Positions 2 to 14,314 of a stretch of DNA of 24,000 nt are shown here, piece by piece. The stretch lies in NCBI RefSeq assembly GCF_009650215.1, contig NZ_CP045851.1, forward strand, positions 759,189 to 783,188, given 5' to 3'. Under the pieces are notes generated by a model. That model made no database searches and was not told where the DNA came from. It saw only the letters and a list, made by a program, of their open reading frames with translations. Every line of letters begins with the position of its first letter. Position 1 is the first letter of the stretch. Origin of the DNA: Actinomarinicola tropica. GTDB lineage: Bacteria; Actinomycetota; Acidimicrobiia; Acidimicrobiales; SKKL01. A program made the translations under genes and the position numbers.

Positions 2-799
2 GGGGTCCGGATCGACTACGACGTGCACGGTCCGGAGGACGGCCGGGTGGTGCTGCTGCTCCACGGCTTCCCCGACGATCGCAGCCTCTGGCGCCACCAG
101 GTCGGCCCGCTGGTCGACGCCGGCTTCCGCGTCGTCGTGCCCGACCAGCGGGGCTACGGGCGCTCCGACAAGCCCGCCGAGGTCGACGCCTACAACCTCC
201 TGTTCCTCGCCGGCGACGCGCTGGCGGTGCTCGACGACGTCGGCGCCACCACGGCGTCGGTGGTCGGCCACGACTGGGGCGCGCCGGTCGCGTGGTCGCT
301 CGCGTCGATGGCCTCCGAGCGGGTCGACCGGTTGGTCGCGCTCTCCGTCGGGCACCCCACGGTGATGTCCGACCCGGGGTGGGAGCAGCGCCGCTGGTCC
401 TGGTACATGCTCCTCTTCCAGTTCGAGGACGTCGCCGAGCGCTGGATGACCGACGACGGCGGCGCCCGCTTCCTCGACTGGAGCAGCCACCCGGAGGGCG
501 CAGAGGTCGTCGACCGGCTCGTGGCGACCGGCTCGTTGACGCCGGCGCTGAACTGGTACCGGGCCAACGTCCACCCCCGCTCGATGCTCGAGCCGCCGCC
601 GGCCCTGCCGCCCGTGCAGGCACCCACCACCGGCGTGTGGTCGAGCGACGACATGGCCCTCACCGAGCAGCAGATGGTGCGCTCCGGCGAGCACTGCGCG
701 AACGGCTTCCGCTACGAGCGCTTCGACGGCATCGGTCACTGGATCCCGCTCGAGGCACCCGAGCGGCTGAACGCCCTCCTCCTCGACGTGCTGGCCTGA
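2..799 (+). CDS. alpha/beta-fold hydrolase (epoxide hydrolase / haloalkane dehalogenase-like); 5' end probably off-window
   Basis: Listed ORF 23..799. The frame stays open back to position 2 (GVRIDYDV precedes the listed start). Motifs: LLLHGFPD..W, PDQRGYGRSDKP, nucleophile elbow VVGHDWGA, C-terminal GIGHW. GC3 is high. Confidence 0.85.
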   Translation, partial: GVRIDYDVHGPEDGRVVLLLHGFPDDRSLWRHQVGPLVDAGFRVVVPDQRGYGRSDKPAEVDAYNLLFLAGDALAVLDDVGATTASVVGHDWGAPVAWSLASMASERVDRLVALSVGHPTVMSDPGWEQRRWSWYMLLFQFEDVAERWMTDDGGARFLDWSSHPEGAEVVDRLVATGSLTPALNWYRANVHPRSMLEPPPALPPVQAPTTGVWSSDDMALTEQQMVRSGEHCANGFRYERFDGIGHWIPLEAPERLNALLLDVLA

Positions 800-814: not shown

Positions 815-1465
815 TCAGCGCCAGAGGTCGATGCGGCGGCCCTGGAGCTCGAAGCCGTGGTCGATCGCCCACAGCACGGCCTGCGTGCGGCTCGTGACGC
901 CCATCTTGGCGTAGGCCGTCCGGATGTAGGTCTTGATCGAGTTGACGCTGAGGTACGTGCGCTCGGCGATCTGGGCGTTGCTGAGGCCCTGGGCGATCAG
1001 GGCGACGACCTCCGCCTCGCGCTCGCTCAGGCCCTCCTCGCGCCCCGGCCAGTCCTGACCGACGGGCGTGCGGGCGGGCGGTGGGTCGCTCACGACGATC
1101 TCGCCGGCGGCGACGCGCTCGATCGCCTCGACGAGCTCGCCGGCGGGGAGCGTCTTCGCCAGGTAGCCCGAGGCGCCGACGTGGAGCGCCTCCTTCACCA
1201 CGACCTCGTCGAACACCCAGGTGTAGACGGCGACGTGACGTGCCGCAGGGTTCTCGACGAGCACCTGGAGGTCGCCGTCGCCCGCCTCCGGCTGGGCGAA
1301 GGTGTCGAGCAGGACGACGTCGACGTCGCCCTCCCCGAGCTCGCCGGTCGTCATCTCGACCACCTCGATGCGGTCGCGGTAGTGGTCGAACATGTGCGCC
1401 AGGCCGGCGATCACGACGTCGTAGTCGTCGACGATGGCGACGCGCACCGGGTGGTGTTCGCTCAT
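815..1465 (-). CDS. NarL/FixJ-type response regulator (receiver domain plus LuxR-family HTH)
   Basis: This is the C-terminal 216 aa of listed ORF 815..2257, starting at ATG 1465..1463 (MSEHHPVRVAIVDDYD). Receiver residues are present: DD, VVLLD, T (VAVYTW), K (GYLAK). The LuxR HTH reads LSEREAEVVALIAQGLSNAQIAERTYLSVNSIKTYIRTAY. The upstream part of the long ORF is antisense to the gene at 1520..2239. Confidence 0.85.
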   Translation of the reverse strand: MSEHHPVRVAIVDDYDVVIAGLAHMFDHYRDRIEVVEMTTGELGEGDVDVVLLDTFAQPEAGDGDLQVLVENPAARHVAVYTWVFDEVVVKEALHVGASGYLAKTLPAGELVEAIERVAAGEIVVSDPPPARTPVGQDWPGREEGLSEREAEVVALIAQGLSNAQIAERTYLSVNSIKTYIRTAYAKMGVTSRTQAVLWAIDHGFELQGRRIDLWR

Positions 1466-1519
1466 GACGAGGTCCCTCACCCCTCGCACGCCCGCCCAAA
1501 CGTCGGCTAGAGAGGGCGC

Positions 1520-2239
1520 ATGGCGAGCTTCGACCGTGACGGTGCCACGATCCACTACGACGACGAGGGCCGCGGCCACCCCGTGCTGCTCATCGCGCCC
1601 GGCGGGATGCGCTCCGCCAACGAGGTCTGGGGGAACATGCCGTGGAACCCGCGGACGGCCCTCGCCGACGGCTACCGGCTCATCGGCATGGACCAGCGCA
1701 ACGCCGGCCGCTCGACGGCCCCCGTCACCGGTGACGAGGGTTGGGCCACCTACGCCGCCGACCAGCTGGCGCTGCTCGACCACCTGGGGATCGAGCGCTG
1801 CCACGTCCTCGGCATGTGCATCGGCGGCCCGTACATCCTGGGGCTGCTCCAGGCCGCTCCCGACCGGTTCGACAGCGCGGTGCTGCTCCAGCCGGTCGGC
1901 ATCGACGACAACCGCGCGGCGCTCGAGGAGATGTTCGACGCCTGGCGGGCCGACATCGCCGACCGGCACCCCGAGGCCGACGACGCGGCGTGGGCCTCGT
2001 ACCGCTCGCACATGTGGGACGGCGAGTTCGTGCTCACGGCGTCGCCCGAGCAGGCGGCGGCGATCCGCACGCCGATCCTCCTGCTGAAGGGGAACGACCT
2101 GTACCACCCGGCGTCGACCTCGGACGCCCTGGCCGCCACGCTGCCCGACGTCACCTACGTCGAGCGGTGGAAGGACGACGAGAGCCTCCCGGCCACCGAC
2201 GCGACGATCAAGGAGTTCCTCGCCCGTCACACCCCCTGA
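1520..2239 (+). CDS. alpha/beta-fold hydrolase
   Basis: 239-aa ORF. Motifs: HPVLLIAPGG, MDQRNAGRS, nucleophile-elbow-like VLGMCIGG. GC3 is high. It is divergent from the response regulator across a 54-bp spacer. Confidence 0.8.
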   Translation: MASFDRDGATIHYDDEGRGHPVLLIAPGGMRSANEVWGNMPWNPRTALADGYRLIGMDQRNAGRSTAPVTGDEGWATYAADQLALLDHLGIERCHVLGMCIGGPYILGLLQAAPDRFDSAVLLQPVGIDDNRAALEEMFDAWRADIADRHPEADDAAWASYRSHMWDGEFVLTASPEQAAAIRTPILLLKGNDLYHPASTSDALAATLPDVTYVERWKDDESLPATDATIKEFLARHTP

Positions 2240-2285: not shown

Positions 2286-2684
2286 GTGGTCTACGAGGAG
2301 ACGGTCGTCCTGAGGGTGGGCTTCGACGAGGCCCTGGCCCAGGTGAAGGAGGCGTTCGCCGAGCAGGGCTTCGGCACGCTGACCGAGATCGACGTCCAGC
2401 AGGTCCTGCGGACGAAGATCGGCAAGGAGATGGGCCGCTACGTCATCGTCGGGGCCTGCAACCCGGAGCTGGCGTCGCAGGCGCTCGACGAGGTGCCCCA
2501 GATCGGCGTGCTCCTGCCCTGCAACGTGGTCGTGCGCGAGTCGCCCGACGGCGTGCTCGTCGAGGCGATGGACCCGGGGGTCATGGCGACGGTGACGGGG
2601 CACGAGGGGATGCGCCCCATCGCCGACGACGCCCGCCGCCGGGTGAGCGACGCGCTCGACCGCCTCCAGGCCACCGCTCTCTGA
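2286..2684 (+). CDS. DUF302 domain protein
   Basis: 132-aa ORF with a GTG start. GAGGAGG lies a few nt upstream. The pattern GFGTLTEIDVQQVL..K.G......Y.IVGACNP......AL...P.IGVLLPCNVVV....DG is typical of DUF302. Confidence 0.75.
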   Translation: MVYEETVVLRVGFDEALAQVKEAFAEQGFGTLTEIDVQQVLRTKIGKEMGRYVIVGACNPELASQALDEVPQIGVLLPCNVVVRESPDGVLVEAMDPGVMATVTGHEGMRPIADDARRRVSDALDRLQATAL

Positions 2685-2706: not shown

Positions 2707-3561
2707 ATGACACGTGCGCTGGTGCTGGGCGGTGGCGGCCCCGTCGGGATCGCCTGGGAGTCGGGACTCGTCGTGGGTCTGGCCGAGCGGGGGATCGACC
2801 TGTCGGTCGCCGACCGCATCCTCGGGACCTCGGCCGGCTCGAACGTCGGGGCACGGCTCGCGCTGGGCCACGACCTGTCGACGGTCGCCCAGGCCCGGTC
2901 GACGCCGCAGCGGTCCGAGTCCGACGCCGTCGGCGGGCCGATGGGGGACCGCCTCGCCGGGCTGATGGAGGTCATGGCCCAGGCGATGGGCCACGAGGGC
3001 ACGCCCGAGGAGGCACGCGCGCTCATCGGCCGCTTCGCCCTCGACGCCGATCCGATGCCGGAGGAGCGGTTCACCGGCGTGTTCGCCGACCTCGCCGACC
3101 AGCCGTGGCCCGCGGCGTTCGCCTGCACCGCCATCCGCGCCCTCACCGGCGAGCTCGTCGTCTGGGACGCCGACGCCGGTGTCGACCTGCACCTGGCCGT
3201 GTCGTCGAGCTGCTCGGTCCCGGGCATCTTCCCGCCGATCACGATCGACGGAGAGCGCTACATCGACGGCGGCATGCGCTCGGCGCTCAACGCCGACCTG
3301 GTCGCGGGGGCGGATCGGGCCGTCGTCGTGTCGGTCATGCCCACGTCCATGGCCGGGTTCGCCGACGTCGGCGGCGAGCTGGCCGCGCTGCGCGGCAGCG
3401 GCACGACGGTCGAGGTCGTCGAGCCCGACGAGGCGTTCCTCGAGCTCGCCGGCATGGGCGCCCACCTGATGGATCTGCACCGCGGCCCGCAGGCCTACGA
3501 GCTCGGCCTCGCCCTCGCCGACCAGGTGGCCGACCGCGTCGGCGTCCACTGGGGCGGCTGA
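2707..3561 (+). CDS. patatin-like phospholipase family protein
   Basis: Oxyanion-hole motif LGGGGPVG, nucleophile GTSAG (G-x-S-x-G), and catalytic Asp in YIDGGM (DGG motif). Confidence 0.85.
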   Translation: MTRALVLGGGGPVGIAWESGLVVGLAERGIDLSVADRILGTSAGSNVGARLALGHDLSTVAQARSTPQRSESDAVGGPMGDRLAGLMEVMAQAMGHEGTPEEARALIGRFALDADPMPEERFTGVFADLADQPWPAAFACTAIRALTGELVVWDADAGVDLHLAVSSSCSVPGIFPPITIDGERYIDGGMRSALNADLVAGADRAVVVSVMPTSMAGFADVGGELAALRGSGTTVEVVEPDEAFLELAGMGAHLMDLHRGPQAYELGLALADQVADRVGVHWGG

Positions 3562-3576
3562 CGCCGGCGCATCCCG

Positions 3577-6300
3577 TCAGCCGGTGTTGCGCAGGCCGGC
3601 GGCGATGCCGTCGATCGTCAGCAGGAGCGCCCGGTCGGTGACGGGGTCGGTCTCGGTGGTCCGGCGGGTGCGCGACAGCAGCTCGACCTGGAGGGCGTGC
3701 ATCGGGTGCAGGTAGCGGTCGCGCACGTCGAGCGTCCGTTGCAGCACCGGGTGCTCCGACAGCGGACCGCGCCCCTCGGTGACCCACGCGAGCTGCTCGA
3801 CCGTCCTGGCGTGCTCGTCCTCGATCACGTCGAGCAGGTGGCGATGCTCGGTGGGCACCAACGCCTCGACGTAGCGGCGGGCGATGCCGAGGTCGGTCTT
3901 GGCCAGCGTCATCTCGACGTTGCTGAGCAGGGCCCGTAGGAACCACCAGTCCCGTGCCATCTGCCGCAGCCGGTCGCCGTGGCCCGCGTCGCGCGCTGCG
4001 GCCAGCCCGGTCCCGACGCCGAACCAGCCGGGCACGATCTGGCGGCTCTGGGTCCAGCCGAACACCCACGGGATGGCGCGCAGCGCGTCGAGCCCGGCGT
4101 TCGCCTCGGGCCGTGACGCCGGCCGGGAGCCGATGTTCAGCCGCCCCAGCTCCTGCACCGGTGTGGACGTGAGGAAGTAGTCGACGAGCGACGGGTCGTC
4201 GACCAGGCGCCGGTAGGCGGCGCGCGCCGCGTCGGAGGTGACGTCCATGACCTCGTCGTAGCCGGCGAGGGTGCTCTCCTCCTGGCGCGAGGTGGTGTGG
4301 AGCACGGTGGCCTCGAGCGTCGCGGCGACGAGCAGCTCGGCGTTGTGCCGGGCGAGGTGCGGCAGCAGGTACTTGTCGCTGATGACCTCGCCCTGCTCGG
4401 TGAGCTTCACCGCCCCCTCGACCGCCCCGTAGGGCTGGGCGAGGATCGCCTGGTGGGCGGGACCGCCGCCGCGGCCCACCGAACCGCCGCGGCCGTGGAA
4501 GAGGCGGAGCCGCACGCCGTGCTCCTGCGCCACGTCGCGCAGCATCCGGATCGCCCGCTGGATCGACCACTGCGAGGTGACGATGCCGCCGTCCTTGTTG
4601 GAGTCCGAGTAGCCGAGCATGACCTCCTGGACGTCGCCGCGGGCCCGCACGACCTCCCGGTAGCTCGGGGTCGACAGGAGGTCGCCGACGATGCGGTCGG
4701 CGTCGAGGAGCTCGTCGATCGTCTCGAGCAGCGGCACGAACGACAGACGGGCGACGCCGCGAGGGACGTCGACCAGTCCGGACTCGCGCGCCGCGACGAC
4801 CGCGGCGAGGACGTCGCTCGGCCCCCGGGTCATCGACACGATGAACGTGCGGATGACGTCGTCGCCGTAGCGGTCGAGGGCGTCGCGGATCACGCTGAAG
4901 GTGCGGGCGACCCTGGTGGCGGTCGGGGAGACCTCGGTCGTGAGGCTGCTGAGCGGGCGGGCCCCGGCGAGCTCGCCGTCGAGCAGGTCGCTGCGGCCCT
5001 CGTCGTCGCTCGGGTAGTCGATGCCGTTGAGCTGGCACAGCTCCTCCACCAGCGTGTGGAGGTTGCGGCTGTGGTCGCGCACGTCCATCTCCGCCAGGTG
5101 GAACCCCGACGCCGCGACGACCCGTCGGACGCCGTCGAGCCGGCCGACCGCGAGGTGGCCAGCTCGCTCGCGCAGCGAGCGACGGACGAGGTCGAGCTCG
5201 GCGAGTAGCTCGGTGGCGTCGCGGTAGTCGACCCCCGGCCGGTGCGGCGTGCCCGTCCGGTGTCGCTCCCTGGTGTTGAGCACGCGCTCGCGGCAGTAGG
5301 ACAGCTTGAGCCGGTAGGGCTCCTCGGCGTTGAGGTGGGCGAGCCGCTCCCAGACCTCGGGCAGCGCGGCCCGGTCGGCCTCCAGGCTGGCGACCAGCTC
5401 CGGGTCGTCCCCGACGATGAGCGACGACGGCGACAGCTCGGTGATGAGGTCGGCGAGGGCCCGCTCGATGAGGAGCAGCCCGCGGTCGTGCATCCACGCG
5501 AGGACCGCGGAGGTGACCTCCGGCGTCACGTTGGGGTTGCCGTCGCGGTCGCCGCCCACCCACGTGCCGAACCGCAGCGGCTGCGCGTCGAGGGGCAGCT
5601 CGACCCCGGCCCGGGCGAGGTGCGCCTCGAGGTCGACGAGCAGGTCGGGGAGCACGTTCCAGAGGACGGACTCCGCGTAGTACAGGGCCGACTGGGCCTC
5701 GTCGGTCGGACGGGGCGCGTTGACCCGCAGCTCGTCGGTGACCCACAGCAGGTCGATGAGCTCGGCGGCGCGCCGGTCGAGCCGCTCGTGCTCGTCGTCG
5801 CCGAGCCGCGGGTCGTGGCGGCGGTCGAGCAGCTCGGCGAGGTCGGCGAGCTTGGTGAGCACCGAGCGGCGCGACGACTCGGTGGGATGGGCGGTGAGCA
5901 CCGGTCGGACCTCGAGGCTCGCCACCGCGTCGGCCAGCTCGTCGGCGGGGAGGCCGGCGTCGGCGATGCGCTCGAACGTGGCGCGCATCCAGCCCCGCCC
6001 GCCGTCCTCGGGCCGGTTGGTGAGGCTGACGCGGTGCGCCTGCTCGGCGACGGTCGCCAGGTGGAAGTACGTGGTGAACGCCCGGGCGTAGAGGATCGCG
6101 TCGAGCGCCCCTGCGGCGGCCAGGCGGTCGGCCAGCTCGCGGCCCGCGGCGGCGTCGCCCTCGTCGGCTCGCCGGGAGAGCTGGCGGATCTCCTCCACGG
6201 CATCGAGGAGGTCCTGTCCGCCCTGGCGGACGAGCGCCCGCCCGAGCTCGTCGCCCAGGCGGCGGATGTCGGATCGGAGCGCGGCGTCGACGTCGTCCAT
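3577..6300 (-). CDS. ppc: phosphoenolpyruvate carboxylase
   Basis: 907-aa product starting at ATG 6300..6298 (MDDVDAALRSDIRRLGDELG). Hallmark motifs: VLTAHPTE, MLGYSDSNKDGG, FHGRGGSVGRGGGP, and the invariant C-terminus GLRNTG. The remainder of listed ORF 3577..7491 is an out-of-frame shadow over the upstream gene. Confidence 0.95.
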   Translation of the reverse strand: MDDVDAALRSDIRRLGDELGRALVRQGGQDLLDAVEEIRQLSRRADEGDAAAGRELADRLAAAGALDAILYARAFTTYFHLATVAEQAHRVSLTNRPEDGGRGWMRATFERIADAGLPADELADAVASLEVRPVLTAHPTESSRRSVLTKLADLAELLDRRHDPRLGDDEHERLDRRAAELIDLLWVTDELRVNAPRPTDEAQSALYYAESVLWNVLPDLLVDLEAHLARAGVELPLDAQPLRFGTWVGGDRDGNPNVTPEVTSAVLAWMHDRGLLLIERALADLITELSPSSLIVGDDPELVASLEADRAALPEVWERLAHLNAEEPYRLKLSYCRERVLNTRERHRTGTPHRPGVDYRDATELLAELDLVRRSLRERAGHLAVGRLDGVRRVVAASGFHLAEMDVRDHSRNLHTLVEELCQLNGIDYPSDDEGRSDLLDGELAGARPLSSLTTEVSPTATRVARTFSVIRDALDRYGDDVIRTFIVSMTRGPSDVLAAVVAARESGLVDVPRGVARLSFVPLLETIDELLDADRIVGDLLSTPSYREVVRARGDVQEVMLGYSDSNKDGGIVTSQWSIQRAIRMLRDVAQEHGVRLRLFHGRGGSVGRGGGPAHQAILAQPYGAVEGAVKLTEQGEVISDKYLLPHLARHNAELLVAATLEATVLHTTSRQEESTLAGYDEVMDVTSDAARAAYRRLVDDPSLVDYFLTSTPVQELGRLNIGSRPASRPEANAGLDALRAIPWVFGWTQSRQIVPGWFGVGTGLAAARDAGHGDRLRQMARDWWFLRALLSNVEMTLAKTDLGIARRYVEALVPTEHRHLLDVIEDEHARTVEQLAWVTEGRGPLSEHPVLQRTLDVRDRYLHPMHALQVELLSRTRRTTETDPVTDRALLLTIDGIAAGLRNTG

Positions 6301-7061
6301 CACACCAGTGTGTTCGCGAACACCTGCCATGCGAGGAGGCTCTTGGCCACGAGGCTGAGGACGATGTAGATCCGCTCGCCGCGGAGGTAGTCCGTCCAGC
6401 CGCCCCGCGCCCGGTACTGCAGCAGCTGCACCAGGGCGAAGCAGTTGAAGGCGACGAAGATCGTCACGAAGATCCCGTACACGAAGTTCGGCACCTCGTC
6501 GCCGGCGCCGAACAGGTAGATCGAGATGCCGATCCACGGGACGGCGCCGATGATCGAGCCGAACACGAACGGGCTCCAGTCGACTCGCTCGTCGGCCCGG
6601 TTCTTGGTCTCCATCTCCCAGCCGAAGAAGATCATCGCGGCGTTGGCGCCGAAGAGGCCGAGGAGCGCGACGGCGTCGGTGATGCCGGTGATGCCGGCGA
6701 TGAGCACGATCATCAGCGACGCCGACAGCGAGTACTCGACCCAGCGGAAGCGGTTGCGACCCTCGGACAGCTCGTGCTGGTAGCGGGACCATCCCGACGG
6801 GGACACGACGAGGAAGTGGAAGAACGCCGAGAGCAGGGAGAACGCCGCCACGGCCGGACCGAGCGGATAGCTGAACAGCTCCTCCAGCTGGTCGCCCGAC
6901 ACCGGGGTGCCCGGCGGGCCCGACGCGAACAGCGCGGTGACCGGGAGGGAGAAGTCGTTCGACAGGACGATGATGAGCGTGCCCTGGACCAGGTGGGCCA
7001 GGCCCGCCACCAGGTTGAAGGGGCGGAGGCGCGACAGGGCGCGGGCGTCGATCTCGGTCAT
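6300..7061 (-). CDS. heliorhodopsin (7-TM retinal-binding protein, inverted topology family)
   Basis: 253 aa with seven hydrophobic helices. From memory it aligns end to end with heliorhodopsin 48C12. Matching elements: FN..G.AHLVQG (His23), a long TM1-TM2 loop, SAFFHFLV (His82), RFRWVEYSLSAS (Glu109 at the counterion position), PNFVY, and TM7 LSLVAKSLLAWQVF with Lys240 (codon 6342..6344). An SD-like GAAGGGG lies 5 nt upstream of ATG 7061. Confidence 0.9.
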   Translation of the reverse strand: MTEIDARALSRLRPFNLVAGLAHLVQGTLIIVLSNDFSLPVTALFASGPPGTPVSGDQLEELFSYPLGPAVAAFSLLSAFFHFLVVSPSGWSRYQHELSEGRNRFRWVEYSLSASLMIVLIAGITGITDAVALLGLFGANAAMIFFGWEMETKNRADERVDWSPFVFGSIIGAVPWIGISIYLFGAGDEVPNFVYGIFVTIFVAFNCFALVQLLQYRARGGWTDYLRGERIYIVLSLVAKSLLAWQVFANTLV

Positions 7062-7144
7062 GTGGGCCCCTTCGTGGCGGGTCGTGCTGACGGATGCAGC
7101 GGTGGCGCCCTACCAGTCGCCGGCCGGCGGAAAACGGTGCGCGG

Positions 7145-8098
7145 TCAGCCGAGGAAGCGGCGGACGTCGTCGGCGTCGGCCCCGAGCGCGACCAGGGCGT
7201 CCGGTGCGATCGGTTCGAGGGGATCGATGTCGACGGCGCCGCGCTCCCACCGCCAGGTGGCGACGGCCCGGCCGTCGACGAGCGCGATGGCCCGGAAGAG
7301 CCCGTTCGTGGTGACGACGCCGCGGTGCGGTCCGGTGATGCGCGGGCGGTCCGTCCAGCCGTGCAGGAGGGGGTCGAACGGGCCGAGGAGACGCGGTGGC
7401 GGCGGGCGCGCGTCGCGGTGGTCGCGCCGGACGACGAGGTTGTCGTCGCCCCACGGCTCGGTCTCCTCGGCGATGGCGGCCAGACCGGCACGGGCGTCGC
7501 CGAGGGTGAGCCCGCTCCACGCGGCCAGGTCGCGCGCCGAGGCCGGCCCGTGGCCTCGCAGGTAGCGCCGGGCCAGCTCGGCGAGCGCGGCGTCGTGGTC
7601 GACGGGTGGCATCGGCCCGAGCCAGGACTCGACGTCGACGAAGGCGTGGCGACCGTCGACGACCGGGCCGCGGACGAGCGCGTGGCGCAGCGTCGCGGCC
7701 ATGAGGATGTGGACGATCGCCTGGCCGGCCGTGCGGATGCCGGCGGCGTCGACCCGGTCGCGCAGCTGCTCCCGGGTGAGCGGGCCCTCGGCCCGCACCG
7801 ACGACATCACCACCTCCACGGCCCGGTCGGCGTCGGCGGGCGGGACGCCCTCCTCGCCCAGCCGACGGGCGTTGTGGACGAGCTGGCGGGGGGCGGTGAG
7901 CGCGTGCAGCCAGTGGTGGTCGGCGGCGGGGACGAGGTGGAGCGTGCCCCGGTGGAGCCAGCTGACGACGAGGGCGCGGTCGACGGTGACCGGGCGGCGG
8001 TGACGGGGTCCATGGGCCGAGTGTGGCTGCTCCTGCGGACAGGATCCGACCGCGTTCGCGGCGAGCTTGCGACCTTCGGCCCTACCTCGTGGGTGCAC
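7145..8098 (-). CDS. winged-helix DNA-binding protein, AlkZ/YcaQ-like DNA glycosylase family (short N-terminus)
   Basis: 317-aa ORF with a GTG start at 8098. Family-typical blocks: LHRGTLHLVPAADHHWL, ELARRYLRGHGPASARDLAAWSGL, FDPLLHGWTDR, ALVDGRAVATWRW. A possible Q-x-Q catalytic motif (PQEQPHSA) lies near the N-terminus. The N-terminus looks about 15-20 aa shorter than I expect for the family. Confidence 0.7.
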   Translation of the reverse strand: MHPRGRAEGRKLAANAVGSCPQEQPHSAHGPRHRRPVTVDRALVVSWLHRGTLHLVPAADHHWLHALTAPRQLVHNARRLGEEGVPPADADRAVEVVMSSVRAEGPLTREQLRDRVDAAGIRTAGQAIVHILMAATLRHALVRGPVVDGRHAFVDVESWLGPMPPVDHDAALAELARRYLRGHGPASARDLAAWSGLTLGDARAGLAAIAEETEPWGDDNLVVRRDHRDARPPPPRLLGPFDPLLHGWTDRPRITGPHRGVVTTNGLFRAIALVDGRAVATWRWERGAVDIDPLEPIAPDALVALGADADDVRRFLG

Positions 8099-8118
8099 CG
8101 GCAGCGGATCCTCGGGGC

Positions 8119-9666
8119 ATGGGAGCCGAGGAGCACCGCCAGCGCGTCCGGTCGATCATCGAGGACCCGGCGCTGACCTACCGCCAACGGGTGTACGCCC
8201 TGGCCGGCGCGGCCGAGGACGCGCTCGACCCGCCGGCGGTGAGCGCCGCCTGTGCGCTCGCCCTCGACAAGGGCCTGATCTGCGACCTGGCCGAGGGGCA
8301 CGCGCCGTATCGTCCCCGCTACACGCTGCCCGACTACGCCCGGGCCCTGGCCCGGGGCAGCACGTTCCTCGAGCTGCCCCCGCCGACGACGTTCGACGAG
8401 GCGACCACGTTCCTGCTCGCGGCGTACGCCAACGTCCCGTCGATCACCGGCTACCCGGTCTGGTTCGGCGACCTCGACCGGCTGCTCGAGCCCTTCGCCG
8501 CCGATCTCGACGACGACGAGCTGCGCACACGCCTGCGTCGGTTCTGGGTCCTGCTCGACCGGCTGTTCCCCGACGCCTTCGCCCACGCCAACCTCGGGCC
8601 GGCCGACGGGCGCGTGGTCCGGGCCGCGCTCGGCGTCCACCGCGACGTCCACCAGGTGGTCCCGAACCTGACACTGCGGGTCGACCCCGACGTCACGCCC
8701 GACGACCTGCTGCTCGAGGCGGCCCGCACGATCGTCACCGTCGCCCAGCCCCACCTGGTGAACCACCCGATGATGGTCGCCGACCTCGGCGAGCGGTACG
8801 GCGTGGTGTCCTGCTACAACGCGCTGCCGGTCGGCGGGGGCTCCCACACGCTCGTGCGGCTCAACCTGCTGGAGGCGGCTCGCCGCCACTCGGGCTCGGC
8901 GGAGCGGTTCCTCGACACGACCCTCCCCGGCGCGATCGCCCTGACGGCGGAGCTGATGGAGGCCCGCATCCGGCACGTCGTCGAGCAGGCCCGCTTCTTC
9001 GAGTCCTCGTGGCTCGTCGACGAAGGGCTGCTCTCGCTCGACCGCTTCACCGCGATGTTCGGCATCGTCGGGTTGGCCGAGTGCGTGGAGCACCTGCTGC
9101 TGCTCGACGGCCGCGAGGGCCGCTACGGCCGCGACCGTGCCGCCGACGACCTGGCCCACGACATCGTCGAGCGCGCCGCGGCGATCGTCCACGCCCTCCC
9201 CATGCCCCATTGCGAGGCGACCGGCGGACACGCCCTCCTGCACTCGCAGGCCGGGCTCGACTCCGACGCGGGGTTCACCGCAGGGACCCGGGTCCGCGTC
9301 GGGGACGAGCCGGACCTCTACCGCCACCTCGCCGCGGTGGCGCCGAACCACGCGCACCTCCCGTCGGGCGTGAGCGACATCGTGCGCCTCGACGAGACCG
9401 TGGTCGACAACCCGGAGGCCGTCGTCGACGTGGCGCGGGGCGCGCTCGCGCTCGGGATGCGGGACGTCACGTTCGAGGTGGCGAACGGCGAGTTCGTCCG
9501 GGTGACCGGCTACCTGGTGAGGCGCAGCGAGATCGAGAAGGTGGCGGCGGCGGACGCCGTGCGGCACTCGAGCAGCGTCCTCGGCGCCGGATCGTTCGCC
9601 AACGCCGGGCTGGATCGCCGCACCGCTCAGCGGGTGCGGTCGCACGAGCGGACGGTCGGGACGTGA
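8119..9666 (+). CDS. yjjI: YjjI-family (DUF3029) glycyl-radical enzyme
   Basis: 515 aa from ATG 8119; as I recall, E. coli YjjI is of similar size. Blocks shared with E. coli YjjI as I remember it: ICD..EGHAPY.PRY.LPDYA, PDAF.HANLGP.D.RV, NLT...DP..TPDDLLL, GVVSCYN.LP.GGG..TLVRLNL. The glycyl-radical motif VRVTGYLVR has its Gly codon at 9508..9510. Confidence 0.85.
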   Translation: MGAEEHRQRVRSIIEDPALTYRQRVYALAGAAEDALDPPAVSAACALALDKGLICDLAEGHAPYRPRYTLPDYARALARGSTFLELPPPTTFDEATTFLLAAYANVPSITGYPVWFGDLDRLLEPFAADLDDDELRTRLRRFWVLLDRLFPDAFAHANLGPADGRVVRAALGVHRDVHQVVPNLTLRVDPDVTPDDLLLEAARTIVTVAQPHLVNHPMMVADLGERYGVVSCYNALPVGGGSHTLVRLNLLEAARRHSGSAERFLDTTLPGAIALTAELMEARIRHVVEQARFFESSWLVDEGLLSLDRFTAMFGIVGLAECVEHLLLLDGREGRYGRDRAADDLAHDIVERAAAIVHALPMPHCEATGGHALLHSQAGLDSDAGFTAGTRVRVGDEPDLYRHLAAVAPNHAHLPSGVSDIVRLDETVVDNPEAVVDVARGALALGMRDVTFEVANGEFVRVTGYLVRRSEIEKVAAADAVRHSSSVLGAGSFANAGLDRRTAQRVRSHERTVGT

Positions 9667-10406
9667 CGTCGCTGCGCGTCGCCGACGTGGTGCGCTCGTC
9701 GTACGTGGACGGACCGGGGCACCGCTACGCGCTGTTCCTCCAGGGCTGCACGTTCAACTGCCCGGGCTGCCACAACCCGCACACGATCGCCCCCCGCTCG
9801 CCCGACGCCCGGGACGTGCCGGTGGCGGAGATCGTGGCCGACGTGGCGGAGGTGGCGCCGTTCCTCACCGGGATCACGGTGTCGGGCGGCGAGGCCACCC
9901 TGCAGTGGGAGGCGGTGCACGCACTGTTCGAGGCGTTGGCCCTCGACCCGGCGACCTCGCGCCTCACCCGCCTCGTCGACACGAACGGCGACGCCGAGGC
10001 CGGGGTGTGGTCGGTCCTCGCGACGTCGATGCACGGCGCCATGGTCGACCTGAAGGCCCTCGACCCCCACGTCCACCGGGTGCTCACCGGCCGCACCAAC
10101 GATCGGGTCCTGCGCTCGATCCGCGACCTCGCGGCACGGCGGCGGCTGGACGAGGTGCGGCTTCTCGTCGTGCCGGGCGTGAACGACACCGCGGATCAGA
10201 TCGACGCCACCGGTCGGTGGTTGGCGTCGATCGATCCCGTTCCTCCCGTGGTGGCGCAGGGGTTCCGCCACCACGGGACCCGTCTGCGGGCCCGGGCGTG
10301 GGCCGAGGCCACCACGAGGGACCTCGAGCGGGTCGCCGACGGCCTCGCCGCCTACGGCCTGGACGTGCGCCGGCGCTCGCTGCCCGAGGTCGCCGTCGCG
10401 GTCTAG
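9663..10406 (+). CDS. yjjW: glycyl-radical enzyme activase, YjjW/PflA-like radical SAM protein
   Basis: The GTG start at 9663 overlaps the yjjI stop (GTGA). The N-terminus reads VDGPGHRYALFLQGCTFNCPGCHNP, giving a CX3CX2C cluster (Cys codons 9747, 9759, 9768). GGEAT is a SAM-binding motif. Only the last 247 aa of listed ORF 8067..10406 are real. Confidence 0.9.
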   Translation: MTSLRVADVVRSSYVDGPGHRYALFLQGCTFNCPGCHNPHTIAPRSPDARDVPVAEIVADVAEVAPFLTGITVSGGEATLQWEAVHALFEALALDPATSRLTRLVDTNGDAEAGVWSVLATSMHGAMVDLKALDPHVHRVLTGRTNDRVLRSIRDLAARRRLDEVRLLVVPGVNDTADQIDATGRWLASIDPVPPVVAQGFRHHGTRLRARAWAEATTRDLERVADGLAAYGLDVRRRSLPEVAVAV

Positions 10407-11269
10407 GGATCCACCCGGTGGTGGCGGAGGCGGTCGAGGGCGTCGACGGTGACCATGCCCCGCCACTCCCACACCGACGGCTCGGTCGGCGGCTCCCACC
10501 GGATGGGCCAGCCGCCGTCGGGCTGCTGCTCGGAGGCGAGCGCGTCGAGGTGGGCGGCGACGAGGTCGGCGTCGAACCAGCTGCGCCAGGTGCTGTCCGG
10601 TCGGGGGGCGATGTCGAGCGGGGTGAGGCCGTACTCGGGGTCGTCGGGGTCGGCACGGTAGTCGGGGGCGTCGACGAGCGCGGTGAGCACCTGTGGGGCG
10701 AGCCGCTCGGCCGTCGCCCGGTCGGGGAGGTGGGTGAGGAGCGTCAGCGCGCACAGGTGCACGTGGGCGTTGCCCTCGACACCGGCGGCGATGGCGTCGA
10801 GGCACCAGGCCGTGGCGTCGTCGAGCCAGGCGTGGCGCACCTGCTGTCCGTGCAGGAGCCCGGCGATCGCCGCCGTGGGGTTGAGGCCGGGCGGGAAGCT
10901 GGTGACCTCCTGCCAGTGGCTCGCCCGGGGGTGGTCGGCGAAGGACGGGAACATGATCGGCAGGGCGCCGGCGCGGTCGGCGACGCCGGCCAGGTGGTCG
11001 CAGAGCGATGCGGTCACGTCGTCGGGCAGGTGGGCGTCGACGCTCCCGACCGCCTCCAGGGCGACCTGGGCGTAGAGCGGTTGGCTGGCGGGGTCGCGGG
11101 TGTCGGGCTCGAGGCCGTGGCCGAACCCGCCGTCGGGGTTGCGGTAGGCGAGCACAGCGGCGACGACCGCGTCGGTCGGGCCGCCGTCGAGCAGGGCGAT
11201 GGCGCGGCGCTGGTCGAGGATGCGGGCGTGGGCGCGGATGAAGGCGCGTGCCGCGGGGATGTCGGGCAT
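10403..11269 (-). CDS. prenyltransferase/terpenoid-cyclase-like alpha/alpha-toroid repeat protein, function unknown
   Basis: 288 aa from ATG 11269 (MPDIPAARAF). QW-like repeats: YRNPDGGFGHGLEPD and EQQPDGGWPIRWEP. GAGGAG lies upstream and overlaps the stop of the WYL regulator. Its stop codon overlaps the yjjW stop in a palindromic CTAG (10403..10406). Confidence 0.65.
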   Translation of the reverse strand: MPDIPAARAFIRAHARILDQRRAIALLDGGPTDAVVAAVLAYRNPDGGFGHGLEPDTRDPASQPLYAQVALEAVGSVDAHLPDDVTASLCDHLAGVADRAGALPIMFPSFADHPRASHWQEVTSFPPGLNPTAAIAGLLHGQQVRHAWLDDATAWCLDAIAAGVEGNAHVHLCALTLLTHLPDRATAERLAPQVLTALVDAPDYRADPDDPEYGLTPLDIAPRPDSTWRSWFDADLVAAHLDALASEQQPDGGWPIRWEPPTEPSVWEWRGMVTVDALDRLRHHRVDP

Positions 11270-11280
11270 TCGGGAGCTCC

Positions 11281-11964
11281 TCAGGGGGCGATGGTGTCGA
11301 AGGGGACGTCGAGGACCTCGTCGAGGTCCCGGTGGGGGGCGACCTCGTCGGTGAGCTCGATCGTCTCGATGCGGTCGAGGCGGAAGACCCGGCCGTCGTC
11401 GCGGAGGCGGCACCAGCCGACGAGGTACGTCGCGTCGGCGTGGACGTGGAGGCCGTGGACCTCGACGGTGCGCTCGGTCCGGCGGTCGTGGCCGTCGGTG
11501 TAGGTGAGGGTGACGACCCGCCGGTCCCGCAGCGCGGCCTCGACGGCGCGGAGGACGGTGGCGTCGTGCGGCTCGGGCGGTCGAAGGCGCAGTCGCTGCG
11601 CGAGTTGCTCGGCGGCCGCGACCTGGTCGGGACGCATGGCGGCGAGCAGCTTCTGGCGGGCCCGGCGGCCCGCGTGGGCGAAGGGCGCGCTGGGCGCCGC
11701 TGCGAGGGCGAGCATGACCGCCAGCGCCTCGTCGGCTTCCAGGTTGAGCGGTGGCAGCGTGGCGCGGGCGTCGATGGCGTAGCCGCCCGTGCGGCCACGC
11801 TCGGCCCAGATCGGCACGCCGGACTGCTGGAGCGCGGCGATGTCGCGCTCGATCGTGCGCACGCTGACCTCGAACCGCTCGGCCAACCGGGTGGCCGACA
11901 GCGGACGCGGCGCGACGGCGCGCAGCTCCTCGACGAGGGCGTAGAGGCGGTCGGTCCGGTTCAT
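11281..11964 (-). CDS. YafY-family transcriptional regulator (HTH plus WYL domain)
   Basis: 227 aa from ATG 11964 (MNRTDRLYALVEELR). The DeoR/YafY-type HTH reads SATRLAERFEVSVRTIERDIAALQQSGVPI. The WYL region reads YLVGWCRLRDDGRVFRLDRI. Confidence 0.85.
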   Translation of the reverse strand: MNRTDRLYALVEELRAVAPRPLSATRLAERFEVSVRTIERDIAALQQSGVPIWAERGRTGGYAIDARATLPPLNLEADEALAVMLALAAAPSAPFAHAGRRARQKLLAAMRPDQVAAAEQLAQRLRLRPPEPHDATVLRAVEAALRDRRVVTLTYTDGHDRRTERTVEVHGLHVHADATYLVGWCRLRDDGRVFRLDRIETIELTDEVAPHRDLDEVLDVPFDTIAP

Positions 11965-12013
11965 CCACCCACCGAGCGTGCGTCGGTCACCCGACAACCC
12001 TATGTCGGGTATT

Positions 12014-13309
12014 TCAGGCGACCTCGGCGAGCTCGGCGAGGAGGGTGTCGCGGGCCCAGGCCGTGAGACGTTCGCCGGCCCCTCGTCGGCGTTGCCGTGC
12101 GCCCAGGCGTCGGCGGAGACCCGGTGTCGCGGGGTGTCGGGCGGACACCGATCGCCCGGCGGGATCGACGAGCTCCCATCGGTGCCGTCCCGGCGGGGGA
12201 TCGGCCGCCGGCCGGAGGTGGAGTTGGTTCCGGTGCACGACCCTGTGGTGGTGGCGGCACAGGAGGACCAGGTTGTCGAGCCGGGTCGGGCCACCGTCCG
12301 CCCAGTGGTGGATGTGGTGGGCGATCAGCCGACGGGTGGCCCCGCATCCGGGGTAGCAGCAGCCACCGTCGCGGGCGAGGAGAGCCCGCCGTTGCGCGGC
12401 CGTGGCGAAGCGGGTGGGCTCGGTGACGGCCACGGGCACGCCCCGCACCATCAGCGTCGTCGTGATGGGCCCCTGCTCAGCGAGCATCGGAAGCCACCAG
12501 TGGGGGACTGCGCCCGCCCCGGGGATGAACGCCCGGTCGATCACCAGGCCCTCCTCCACCTCCCGCGCGTGCACGACGACGTTCACGGTGGCCGTCTCGG
12601 GCGCGAACCCCACGTCGTTGGTCCTGGTGCTGGTGGCGCGCTCGCCGAGGGCGAGCAAGGCCTCGGCGCACGAGCGCTGGTGCGGCGGCGTCGGCCCCGT
12701 CTCGTCACGCCCGTCGAGGCGCTCGCGCTCGGATTCGAGCCAAGCCTGAAGCGCCGCACCGTCGGCGGCGTCGAAGTCGCCGCTCAGCTGGAAGCGACCG
12801 TCGCGCCAGTGCCAGCGTGCCCGCGAGGGGTCGGGCTCGTCGTCCTCGTCGGGCTCGGCGTCGTCGTCCTGCCGGCGGGCCGGCGCCGTGATGCGCGCGT
12901 GCTCCTGGAGCACGCGCTCGAGCTGGTTGCCGGTGAGCTCGCGCGTGGCCTCCAGGAGGGCAGCTTCGTTCTCCGGCGTGGCCCGCCGGGCGATGGCGAG
13001 CACCGACCGCAACGAGCGCTCGCCGCTGGACAGCACCTGACGTGTGAGCGGAAGCTCCGACAGGCGGTCGACGAGCTCGACCACCTCCCGGGCCTCGGCC
13101 CCTGTCATCCCCAACGCCCACGCGAGGTACGACGGCCACGGGTCGGCGCAGTTCGTCTCCATGAGCTCGGCAGTGCGGGCCACGAGCTGGGCCTGCCACG
13201 CCGCGACCTGCCCGGCGGCCTCGGTCGCGGCGGCGAGGAGCACCTCGTGCCGCGCCGCGTCGTCGCCAGGGTTCGGGGGTTCGGCCACCTGCAACTCGTT
13301 CGCCGCCAT
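12014..13309 (-). CDS. DUF222 / HNH endonuclease domain protein (actinobacterial 13E12-repeat type)
   Basis: 431-aa ORF. The N-terminal DUF222-like region includes AELMETNC...YLAWALGMTGAEAREVV. The C-terminal HNH region reads CCYPGCGATRRLIAHHIHHWADGGPTRLDNLVLLCRHHHRVVH. Confidence 0.85.
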   Translation of the reverse strand: MAANELQVAEPPNPGDDAARHEVLLAAATEAAGQVAAWQAQLVARTAELMETNCADPWPSYLAWALGMTGAEAREVVELVDRLSELPLTRQVLSSGERSLRSVLAIARRATPENEAALLEATRELTGNQLERVLQEHARITAPARRQDDDAEPDEDDEPDPSRARWHWRDGRFQLSGDFDAADGAALQAWLESERERLDGRDETGPTPPHQRSCAEALLALGERATSTRTNDVGFAPETATVNVVVHAREVEEGLVIDRAFIPGAGAVPHWWLPMLAEQGPITTTLMVRGVPVAVTEPTRFATAAQRRALLARDGGCCYPGCGATRRLIAHHIHHWADGGPTRLDNLVLLCRHHHRVVHRNQLHLRPAADPPPGRHRWELVDPAGRSVSARHPATPGLRRRLGARQRRRGAGERLTAWARDTLLAELAEVA

Positions 13310-13346
13310 GTCCCCATCATCCCCAGGGGGTGTGACAGCGAACGGG

Positions 13347-13739
13347 TCAGAGGTTGTTCTTGTGGAGCTTCTCCGGGGTGATCCTCACGATCGCCCGCTC
13401 GCTCTGGATCTGGGCCCCGTAGTCGTTGCCGGTGTAGCGGCGGGAGAGGGCGTCGATGTGGGTCCGGGCCTCGTCGCCCCGGACCGTCTCGGCGACCCGT
13501 CCCCGCACCTCCACGTACTGGTACGGGTTCTCGCCGTTGATGACGGTGATCGTCACCCGCGGGTCGCGCTCGATGTCCTTGAACTTCGCCCGGTGCACCT
13601 CGGTGTTGATGAGCACGTGCTCGTCGTCGGCGTCCACCCACATCACGTGGGTGCGGGGCTGGCCGTCGGCCGAGAGCGTGGTGAGGGCCGCGAAGTTCTT
13701 GGCGGTGGCGAGGTTCTTGAGGTCGGCGTCGATGGTCAT
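13347..13739 (-). CDS. PPOX-class (pyridoxamine 5'-phosphate oxidase fold) probable F420-dependent oxidoreductase
   Basis: 130 aa from ATG 13739 (MTIDADLKNLATAKNFAALTTLSADGQPRTHVMWV...RDPRVTITV). The upstream part of listed ORF 13347..14006 is Arg-rich shadow. Confidence 0.75.
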   Translation of the reverse strand: MTIDADLKNLATAKNFAALTTLSADGQPRTHVMWVDADDEHVLINTEVHRAKFKDIERDPRVTITVINGENPYQYVEVRGRVAETVRGDEARTHIDALSRRYTGNDYGAQIQSERAIVRITPEKLHKNNL

Positions 13740-13768
13740 GGGAGGTGCAACACCGCGAGGGCCGGTCG

Positions 13769-14314
13769 TCATCCCGCTCGGCGCAGCAGCTCGACGAACT
13801 CGGCCGCGGCGGCATCGACCCCTGCCTCGTCGTCGGTCGCGACGAGATCGAGCAGCAGGCCCCGGGTCACGGCGAGGACGAGCCGGATCCGCGCCCGGTC
13901 GACCGTGCCGCCCGAGGCCTCCGCGGCGGCGTCGAGCCACCCGTCGATCGCCGGCCCGAGCAGTCGGGTGAACGGCTCCTCGCCCTGCGCACCACGGGCG
14001 TAGCACTCGAAGAAGAGCCGCTCGAACGGCCGCAGCTCCCGCCGTCGGAGGTCGGCCCAGGAGGCGGCGACGGCTTCGGCCGGGTCGTCCGGCAGCTCGG
14101 TGAGCATCAGGACCTGGCGCCGCTCGACCTCCTCGACGATCGCGAGCAGCAGCTCGTCGCGCGAGCCGAGGTGGTGGATGAGCATCCGGTGGCTGGTCCC
14201 GACCGCCGCCGCGAGGTCCCGCAGCGACCGACCGCCGATGCCGTGCGCCGCGACCTCGTCGATCAGGGCGTCGAGCAGCTGGCGGCGCCGGGTGTCGTCA
14301 GGAGGCCGCGGCAT
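13769..14314 (-). CDS. TetR/AcrR family transcriptional regulator
   Basis: 181 aa from ATG 14314 (MPRPPDDTRRRQLLDALIDEVAAHGIGGRSLRDLAAAVGTSHRMLIHHLGSRDELL), which is a TetR N-terminal HTH. It overlaps the upstream SRPBCC gene by 17 nt. Confidence 0.85.
   Translation of the reverse strand: MPRPPDDTRRRQLLDALIDEVAAHGIGGRSLRDLAAAVGTSHRMLIHHLGSRDELLLAIVEEVERRQVLMLTELPDDPAEAVAASWADLRRRELRPFERLFFECYARGAQGEEPFTRLLGPAIDGWLDAAAEASGGTVDRARIRLVLAVTRGLLLDLVATDDEAGVDAAAAEFVELLRRAG

Follow-up and report, generated by a model that had tools for sequence, protein, structure and literature searches.

A heliorhodopsin gene overlapping the phosphoenolpyruvate carboxylase gene of Actinomarinicola tropica

Physiological roles of the abundant heliorhodopsins (HeRs), light-sensing membrane proteins, are known in three cases only, and each was found by following the adjacent gene. 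Can the same route lead to a role for the HeR of Actinomarinicola tropica? We analyzed a stretch of 24,000 nucleotides (the window) from the genome of this bacterium (Actinomycetota, Acidimicrobiia, Iamiaceae; cultured type strain SCSIO 58843T from South China Sea sediment; complete genome, assembly GCA_009650215.1). The window holds a HeR gene whose stop codon overlaps the start codon of ppc, the gene for phosphoenolpyruvate carboxylase (PEPC), and which follows a gene for an AlkZ-like DNA glycosylase. With high confidence, we read the product as a functional HeR of the 48C12 type that would serve as a light sensor or regulator, is likely co-transcribed with ppc, and has PEPC as a candidate partner. 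An original prediction, made from the DNA letters alone, had named the HeR and had argued that its genomic context would be informative. The overlap with ppc and the AlkZ-like neighbor, the only content here beyond the routine, had escaped that prediction.

Is the gene what it was said to be? The open reading frame (ORF) is intact from ATG to TGA and encodes the 253 amino acids expected, with a ribosome-binding site, GAAGGGG, 5 nt 5' of the ATG. Its G+C content at third codon positions (GC3) is 0.96, matching the neighboring genes and the native codon signature of the genome. Profile searches, one of the checks proposed with the original prediction, matched both heliorhodopsin family models far above their cutoffs: Pfam Heliorhodopsin (PF18761) at 317.8 bits (E 5e-95, cutoff 26.7), covering profile positions 1-242 of 242, and the NCBIfam equivalog NF038020 'heliorhodopsin HeR' at 303.5 bits (cutoff 100). 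Comparison with the HeRs of solved structure, likewise proposed, gave E 5e-76 for 48C12 (54% identity over 244 aligned residues) and E 1.6e-58 for TaHeR, and a database search gave over 6,300 matching proteins at E <= 1e-10. HeRs are restricted to monoderm (single-membrane) organisms (Bulzu 2021), and the host of the identical protein, a member of the Actinomycetota, is a single-membrane bacterium. That protein is 100% identical to QGG94306.1, WP_153758412.1 and UniProt A0A5Q2RIU4, 'heliorhodopsin HeR [Actinomarinicola tropica]'. NCBI and UniProt already give the gene its correct name, and the gene call itself is routine and not new. From these matches and the modeled fold described below, the product is almost certainly a heliorhodopsin.

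Residues of the retinal pocket were compared with those of 48C12, for which Kovalev 2020 (PMC7049168) lists the residues defining the chromophore site and the Schiff-base cavity. The four residues singled out by the original prediction all fell into register (Table 1): His23 in AGLAHLVQG, His82 in FFHFLV, Glu109, at the counterion position, in RWVEY, and Lys240, the Schiff-base lysine, in LSLVAKSLLAWQVF. In pairwise alignment, 30 of the 32 48C12 residues examined, most of which Kovalev 2020 (PMC7049168) describes as structurally important, were identical in our HeR. After correction of one pair (see below), the positions of our HeR identical to 48C12 are N16, H23, Q26, F74, S78, H82, Y94, L98, N103, R106, W107, E109, Y110, S113, M117, N140, M143, E151, P175, F205, Q212, Q215, Y216, Y225, L226, E229, S236, K240, S241 and W245. 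L202 of 48C12 is replaced by I201. The HMMER alignment sets E149 of 48C12 opposite E151, a residue that does not vary in the 41 homologues aligned; on these two grounds the pairing of E149 with T152 in a Biopython pairwise alignment was a gap-placement artefact. The helix G motif S236-L-V-A-K240 (SxxxK) aligns its serine and lysine to S237 and K241 of 48C12, both invariant in the 41 homologues; the serine of this HeR motif stands in for Asp212 of type-1 rhodopsins. The cavity residues N16, H23, H82, Y94, N103, R106, Y110 and E229 are all conserved.

The AlphaFold2 model (predicted local distance difference test score 84.8, predicted template modeling score 0.82) has the seven helices expected, and the long loop between the first two, the A-B loop, forms a beta-hairpin with strands at residues 40-46 and 59-66. 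In Foldseek the model superposed on 48C12 (6su3) with E 1.6e-18 and a template modeling (TM) score of 0.85, and on TaHeR with a TM score of 0.81; the best type-1 rhodopsin reached only E 2e-4 and a TM score of ~0.6. The N-terminus together with the B-C, D-E and F-G loops has 11 lysines and arginines (R93, R102, R104, R106, K153, R155, R159, R217, R219, R227 and R230), and the opposite face has 0; a cytoplasmic N-terminus is therefore predicted, the inverted topology that was to be looked for.

Could the gene instead encode a type-1 rhodopsin (a pump or a sensor), or be a decayed, non-functional opsin? In favor stand the generic seven-helix fold of retinal proteins, visible in the type-1 Foldseek match, and the lack of retinal-biosynthesis genes in the window, as originally remarked: Pfam scans of 26 GC3-supported ORFs along it found no gene for making retinal or carotenoids (SQS_PSY, Amino_oxidase, lycopene cyclase or BCD/Blh). 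Nothing else speaks for either alternative. The Bac_rhodopsin (type-1) Pfam model did not match HeR even at E <= 1, the helix G motif is SxxxK instead of DxxxK, and the predicted topology is inverted. Decay is countered by the intact frame, by 80 invariant columns that our HeR shares with 40 homologues in a 41-sequence alignment, and by a ratio of nonsynonymous to synonymous substitution rates (dN/dS) of 0.21-0.26 relative to four relatives, which indicates that the gene is under purifying selection. As far as sequence analysis goes both alternatives are refuted, and we take their probability to be negligible.

The question then becomes what the neighbors of this HeR might say about its function. 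At its downstream end HeR runs into ppc without a gap: the junction reads ...CTG GTG TGA TGG ACG..., a 1-nt overlap of the HeR stop and the ppc start that forms a candidate site of translational coupling. The ATG in this overlap is the true start of ppc, as the NCBI protein has 907 amino acids and relatives share its N-terminus, MDDVDAALRSDIRRLG. The product carries all the catalytic motifs of PEPC, TAHPT, GYSDSNKDGG, FHGRGGSVGRGG and the C-terminal RNTG. When operons are defined as same-strand genes that are less than 10 bp apart or overlapping (Bulzu 2021), HeR and ppc would form one, and the 83-bp gap between AlkZ and HeR is too wide for the strict form of the rule.

Close relatives, reached by exact-protein look-ups, place the window in a clade of five lineages in which HeR is 81-89% identical to ours; besides the window these are loci L081/L083, L174, L084 and L085. 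The L081/L083 lineage (HeR 89% identical) has an ankyrin-repeat gene, HeR and ppc, with an identical GTGTGATGG overlap. L174 (84-86%) carries the entire block that surrounds HeR in the window, namely divergent radical-SAM and YjjI genes, then AlkZ, HeR and ppc, then convergent patatin and DUF302 genes, save that HeR and ppc are separated by a 70-bp spacer; an in-frame stop upstream of the ppc N-terminus MDDVDAALRSDIRRLG there further supports the start codon assigned above. L084 (86%) has AlkZ, HeR and a convergent patatin gene, without ppc, and L085 (81-82%) has AlkZ, HeR and Epimerase_2. HeR and ppc are therefore adjacent in three of the five lineages (window, L081/L083 and L174), and AlkZ and HeR lie together on the same strand in four (window, L174, L084 and L085).

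At the patatin gene, L084 and the window can be compared directly. In L084 (2682-3137) it lies 24 bp past the HeR stop, convergent with HeR, and is 65% identical to the window patatin; in the window (3561-6300) the 2.7-kb ppc sits exactly between HeR and patatin. We interpret this as the gain or loss of ppc as a precise single-gene unit.

Within the L174 spacer (5931-6000 of that locus), 8 nt ahead of the ppc start codon, lies TAGGGT, which could be a leaderless actinobacterial promoter for ppc. The whole spacer has been lost in the window and in L081, and on visual reading of the sequence no TANNNT was seen in the last ~170 nt of HeR. The two observations together make it most likely that expression of ppc in the window requires transcription of HeR and termination-reinitiation at the TGATG. 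Co-transcription of HeR and ppc is, from this evidence, quite probable. Upstream of HeR, a motif TGGTAG(G/A)G occurs 32-45 nt 5' of the ATG in four of the five lineages (window, L081, L174 and L084), the window copy being TGGTAGGGC. It is retained whether an AlkZ or an ankyrin gene adjoins upstream, with GGTAGGG kept in L081, which suggests a promoter belonging to HeR itself; we regard the motif as a candidate -10-like element. A second motif, GCATCC, is common to the regions 5' of HeR in the window, L081 and L085.

How far does the pairing with ppc extend? For a distant set, the window genes were searched by tblastn against 80 genome loci (HeR 41-65% identical) and 79 metagenome loci. Several results weigh against our reading of the locus. 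Neither ppc nor AlkZ adjoined HeR at any of these 159 loci. HeRs that are 74-80% identical have unrelated neighbors (SNase, Pyrid_ox_like, Usp, Pyr_redox_2 and HATPase_c_2), and no HeR was found near the next-closest ppc genes (74-75% identical) at two loci. All occurrences of the pairing fall within a single shallow clade, whose members have HeRs 81-89% identical and a synonymous divergence (dS) of 0.36-0.51, so that shared ancestry alone could explain both adjacencies, and the HeR-ppc order may be inherited without selection. In L084, AlkZ and HeR are followed directly by patatin, with no ppc. A consensus scan of positions 3300-8400 found no promoter or terminator, although it was tuned to sigma-70 and E. 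coli signals and is probably uninformative for a 73% G+C genome; ppc may also have an internal promoter inside HeR. To these can be added the lack of carotenoid and retinal genes in the window already described.

Downstream of HeR (loci L001-L165), a census in which 86 co-directional ORFs were classified with Pfam likewise found no dominant family. The highest counts were 7 for NAD-dependent epimerase or short-chain dehydrogenase/reductase, 6-7 for threonyl-tRNA synthetase domains and 5 for prokaryotic phospholipase A2, and PEPcase occurred only at the two close relatives. We accordingly rejected the idea that HeRs in general adjoin ppc or AlkZ, given 0 of 159 loci and a census without a dominant partner. 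The census also included one phytoene/squalene synthase and two amine-oxidase (phytoene-desaturase-like) genes, showing that a few HeRs do adjoin carotenoid genes.

The neighbors could therefore be incidental: HeR would sense light on its own and signal to unlinked partners, for example histidine kinases or oxidative-stress systems, and ppc would be on the HeR transcript only through deletion of the 70-bp spacer in this lineage. We put this at somewhat better than even. HeR neighborhoods are fluid even at 74-89% identity (Ank, SNase, Pyrid_ox_like, Usp, Epimerase_2, Pyr_redox_2 and HATPase_c_2), the census agrees, the spacer is retained in L174 and ppc is missing in L084, and HeRs have been called promiscuous switches (Bulzu 2021). 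Yet through the overlap ppc expression would hinge on HeR transcription in this organism, an arrangement that for an enzyme so central to anaplerosis is unlikely to be neutral, and the three experimentally supported HeR partners all came from just such clade-restricted adjacency.

Those three cases are the basis for treating PEPC as a candidate. AbHeR binds glutamine synthetase with a dissociation constant (Kd) of 6 uM (Cho 2022, PMC9529153), TfHeR binds a class-2 cyclobutane pyrimidine dimer (CPD) photolyase with a Kd of about 22 uM, enhancing this DNA-repair enzyme (Shim 2022, PMC9769723), and OcHeR pairs with the ABC transporter OmrDE (Nat Commun 2024, PMC11109279). In all three pairs, binding is determined by positively charged residues of the intracellular loops (PMC9529153, PMC9769723, PMC11109279), and all three partners were found through operon adjacency restricted to a clade; the glutamine synthetase group shares 74-92% similarity (PMC9529153). 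By the same route, PEPC is a legitimate candidate here.

The reading of this locus that we favor can be put together from the evidence above and from these precedents. HeR would span the membrane with a cytoplasmic N-terminus. K240 would carry all-trans-retinal, E109 would serve as the counterion, and S236, S78 and S113 would stabilize the Schiff base. The cytoplasmic Schiff-base cavity, predicted to be water-filled, is kept (N16, H23, H82, Y94, N103, R106, Y110 and E229) and the extracellular half is hydrophobic, a combination from which a slow-cycling light sensor or regulator, as in other bacterial HeRs, is expected rather than an ion pump. HeR would most likely be transcribed together with ppc, whose translation would probably be coupled to HeR termination at the TGATG. 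By analogy, the most plausible output is protein-protein contact through the Arg-rich cytoplasmic loops, and PEPC, though unproven, would be the leading candidate partner at the locus. That a real functional link joins HeR and PEPC is in our judgment unlikely. In its full form, HeR would be wired to PEPC in Actinomarinicola and its closest relatives by one transcript and coupled translation, and light-activated HeR would bind PEPC by its Arg-rich loops and stimulate anaplerotic bicarbonate fixation, the cavity, of a size to hold bicarbonate, perhaps contributing; we hold this, too, to be unlikely.

PEPC uses bicarbonate as its substrate, which opens a more specific alternative: the HeR cavity might take up bicarbonate or carbonate, which it would then hand on to the co-expressed enzyme or activate for it. 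Kovalev 2020 (PMC7049168) fitted a planar triangular anion in the cavity, noted that bicarbonate would fit, and suggested a role in carbon fixation, and all the cavity-lining residues are conserved in our HeR. The anion was, however, present only at acidic pH and was modeled as acetate, and no catalysis by a HeR was shown (Kovalev 2020, PMC7049168). Moreover the cavity residues are near-universal in HeRs, whereas the adjacency to ppc is limited to a single small clade, so the juxtaposition of HeR and a bicarbonate-using enzyme is suggestive but weak evidence. We consider this alternative very improbable.

The upstream neighbor offers another candidate. HeR might work with the AlkZ-like glycosylase as a light-dependent helper of DNA repair, parallel to the HeR-photolyase pair. 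AlkZ-HeR is the most conserved adjacency in the clade, at four of five lineages, and the 83-bp spacer between the genes is without a terminator or stable hairpin (its folding is weaker than that of shuffled sequence, z = +1.59); enhancement of a DNA-repair enzyme by a HeR has precedent (Shim 2022, PMC9769723). This adjacency too was absent from all 159 distant loci, however, and L081, with an ankyrin-repeat gene upstream, still keeps the GGTAGGG region, suggesting that HeR has a promoter of its own. The interstrand crosslinks on which AlkZ acts are not lesions specific to light. In the literature covered, HeR was linked to PEPC, anaplerosis or a DNA glycosylase in incidental co-mentions only. 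PEPC and AlkZ-like proteins are also absent from the ten operon groups of PMC11109279 and from the neighbors discussed in Bulzu 2021. We judge a partnership with the glycosylase improbable. The stop/start overlap of HeR and ppc is previously unremarked.

The coordinates of the locus are collected in Table 1. Genes were called by GC3 frame analysis, in a window whose G+C ranges over 69-77%.

Table 1. Features of the window and of the HeR gene (positions count from the first letter of the window)
Feature	Position	Strand	Basis or remark
Alpha/beta hydrolase	23-799	+	GC3 frame, Pfam
LuxR-type response regulator	815-1489	-	GC3 frame, Pfam
Alpha/beta hydrolase	1520-2239	+	GC3 frame, Pfam
DUF302	2286-2684	+	GC3 frame, Pfam
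Patatin	2707-3561	+	GC3 frame, Pfam
ppc, phosphoenolpyruvate carboxylase, 907 aa, QGG94305.1	3577-6300	-	PF00311, 974 bits
TGATG junction, candidate translational coupling site	6298..6302	-	HeR stop TGA (6302..6300) shares its A with ppc ATG (6300..6298)
Heliorhodopsin (HeR), 253 aa + TGA stop	6300-7061	-	PF18761, NF038020, QGG94306.1
Lys240, predicted retinal Schiff-base lysine	6342..6344	-	codon AAG, read 6344..6342; aligns to K241 of 48C12
Glu109, predicted Schiff-base counterion	6735..6737	-	aligns to E107 of 48C12
His82, predicted Schiff-base cavity lining	6816..6818	-	aligns to H80 of 48C12
His23, predicted Schiff-base cavity lining	6993..6995	-	aligns to H23 of 48C12
AlkZ-HeR spacer, 83 bp	7062-7144	-	holds ribosome-binding site GAAGGGG (7073..7067) and TGGTAGGGC motif (7115..7107)
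AlkZ-like DNA glycosylase	7145-8098	-	PF06224; exact start uncertain
YjjI-like glycyl-radical enzyme	8119-9666	+	PF11230, 622 bits
Radical-SAM activase	9663-10406	+	GC3 frame, Pfam

Beyond 10406 the window holds regulators, an HNH endonuclease, a PNPOx gene, a methyltransferase, ZnuA and others. Scans of the window found no non-coding RNA family with Rfam and no tRNA with ARAGORN.

The first possible start of the AlkZ-like gene is a GTG at 8098, 20 bp from the ATG of the divergent YjjI gene (8119). The Pfam AlkZ model is matched from profile position 37 onward, and the alignment with relatives does not start before residue 35. The catalytic motif of characterized AlkZ/YcaQ proteins lies in the N-terminus. 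With such a late profile start and so tight a gap, the AlkZ N-terminus is uncertain here. The YjjI-like enzyme and its radical-SAM activase (8119-10406, plus strand) diverge from AlkZ-HeR-ppc and are kept in L174 (80% and 69% identity); the former belongs to an oxygen-sensitive enzyme type of unknown function, here in a marine actinobacterium. Between the activase and a TetR/Polyketide_cyc2 pair, the window (10403-13772) has an unknown 288-aa ORF, a WYL/HTH regulator, the HNH endonuclease and the PNPOx-like gene. In L174 (1243-2477) TetR/Polyketide_cyc2 follows the activase directly, an indel of ~3.4 kb relative to the window that is possibly mobile.

Split-barrel flavoproteins (PNPOx, Pyridox_ox_2 and Pyrid_ox_like) were noted near HeR in several relatives: window 13347-13772 (minus strand), L086 2337-3340 and 4997-5413, L168 1452-1904, and L169 1095-1646. 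In L168 the flavoprotein gene ends 2 bp before the HeR start. The recurrence could be due to chance, the family being large in Actinomycetota.

What would follow from a link between HeR and ppc? The locus adds a candidate partner outside the published surveys, PEPC being the main anaplerotic CO2-fixing enzyme, and it is relevant to the speculation, drawn from structure, that carbonate binds to HeRs. If real, the link would be the first genetic one between a heliorhodopsin and carbon fixation, an idea raised by Kovalev 2020 (PMC7049168) from structure alone; if not, the gene is one more correctly annotated HeR among thousands. The type strain is in culture and its genome is complete, which makes light-regulated assimilation of bicarbonate via HeR directly testable. 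We regard HeR-ppc as a cheap, testable and speculative lead on HeR function, for which comparative support is thin.

Among known HeRs, 48C12 (6su3, 6su4 and 6uh3; Pushkarev 2018, Kovalev 2020) is the nearest model. Both proteins come from Actinomycetota and share the Schiff-base lysine, the Glu counterion, the two histidines, SxxxK, the cavity, the A-B beta-hairpin and the seven-transmembrane fold. Ours differs in a 2-residue insertion in the A-B loop, an E-F loop 4 residues shorter, and Ile in place of L202; in context, 48C12 lies near glutamine synthetase (PMC9529153), whereas our HeR overlaps ppc. TaHeR (6is6), from a Thermoplasmatales archaeon, has the same key residues and 44-45% identity in structural alignment (TM score 0.81), but this archaeal protein is more distant from ours and has a different sequence in the A-B loop. 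The viral V2HeR3, which transports protons (cited in PMC11109279), belongs to the same family but comes from giant viruses and, in what that source relates of it, is without operon partners; from a bacterial HeR of the 48C12 type with a hydrophobic extracellular half, we do not expect transport. The closest parallels in organization are AbHeR, TfHeR and OcHeR (PMC9529153, PMC9769723, PMC11109279). Like them, our HeR lies in a predicted operon with an enzyme or transporter gene, in an adjacency found in a narrow clade, and has positively charged cytoplasmic loops; it differs from them in its candidate partners, an overlapping ppc downstream and an AlkZ-like glycosylase upstream.

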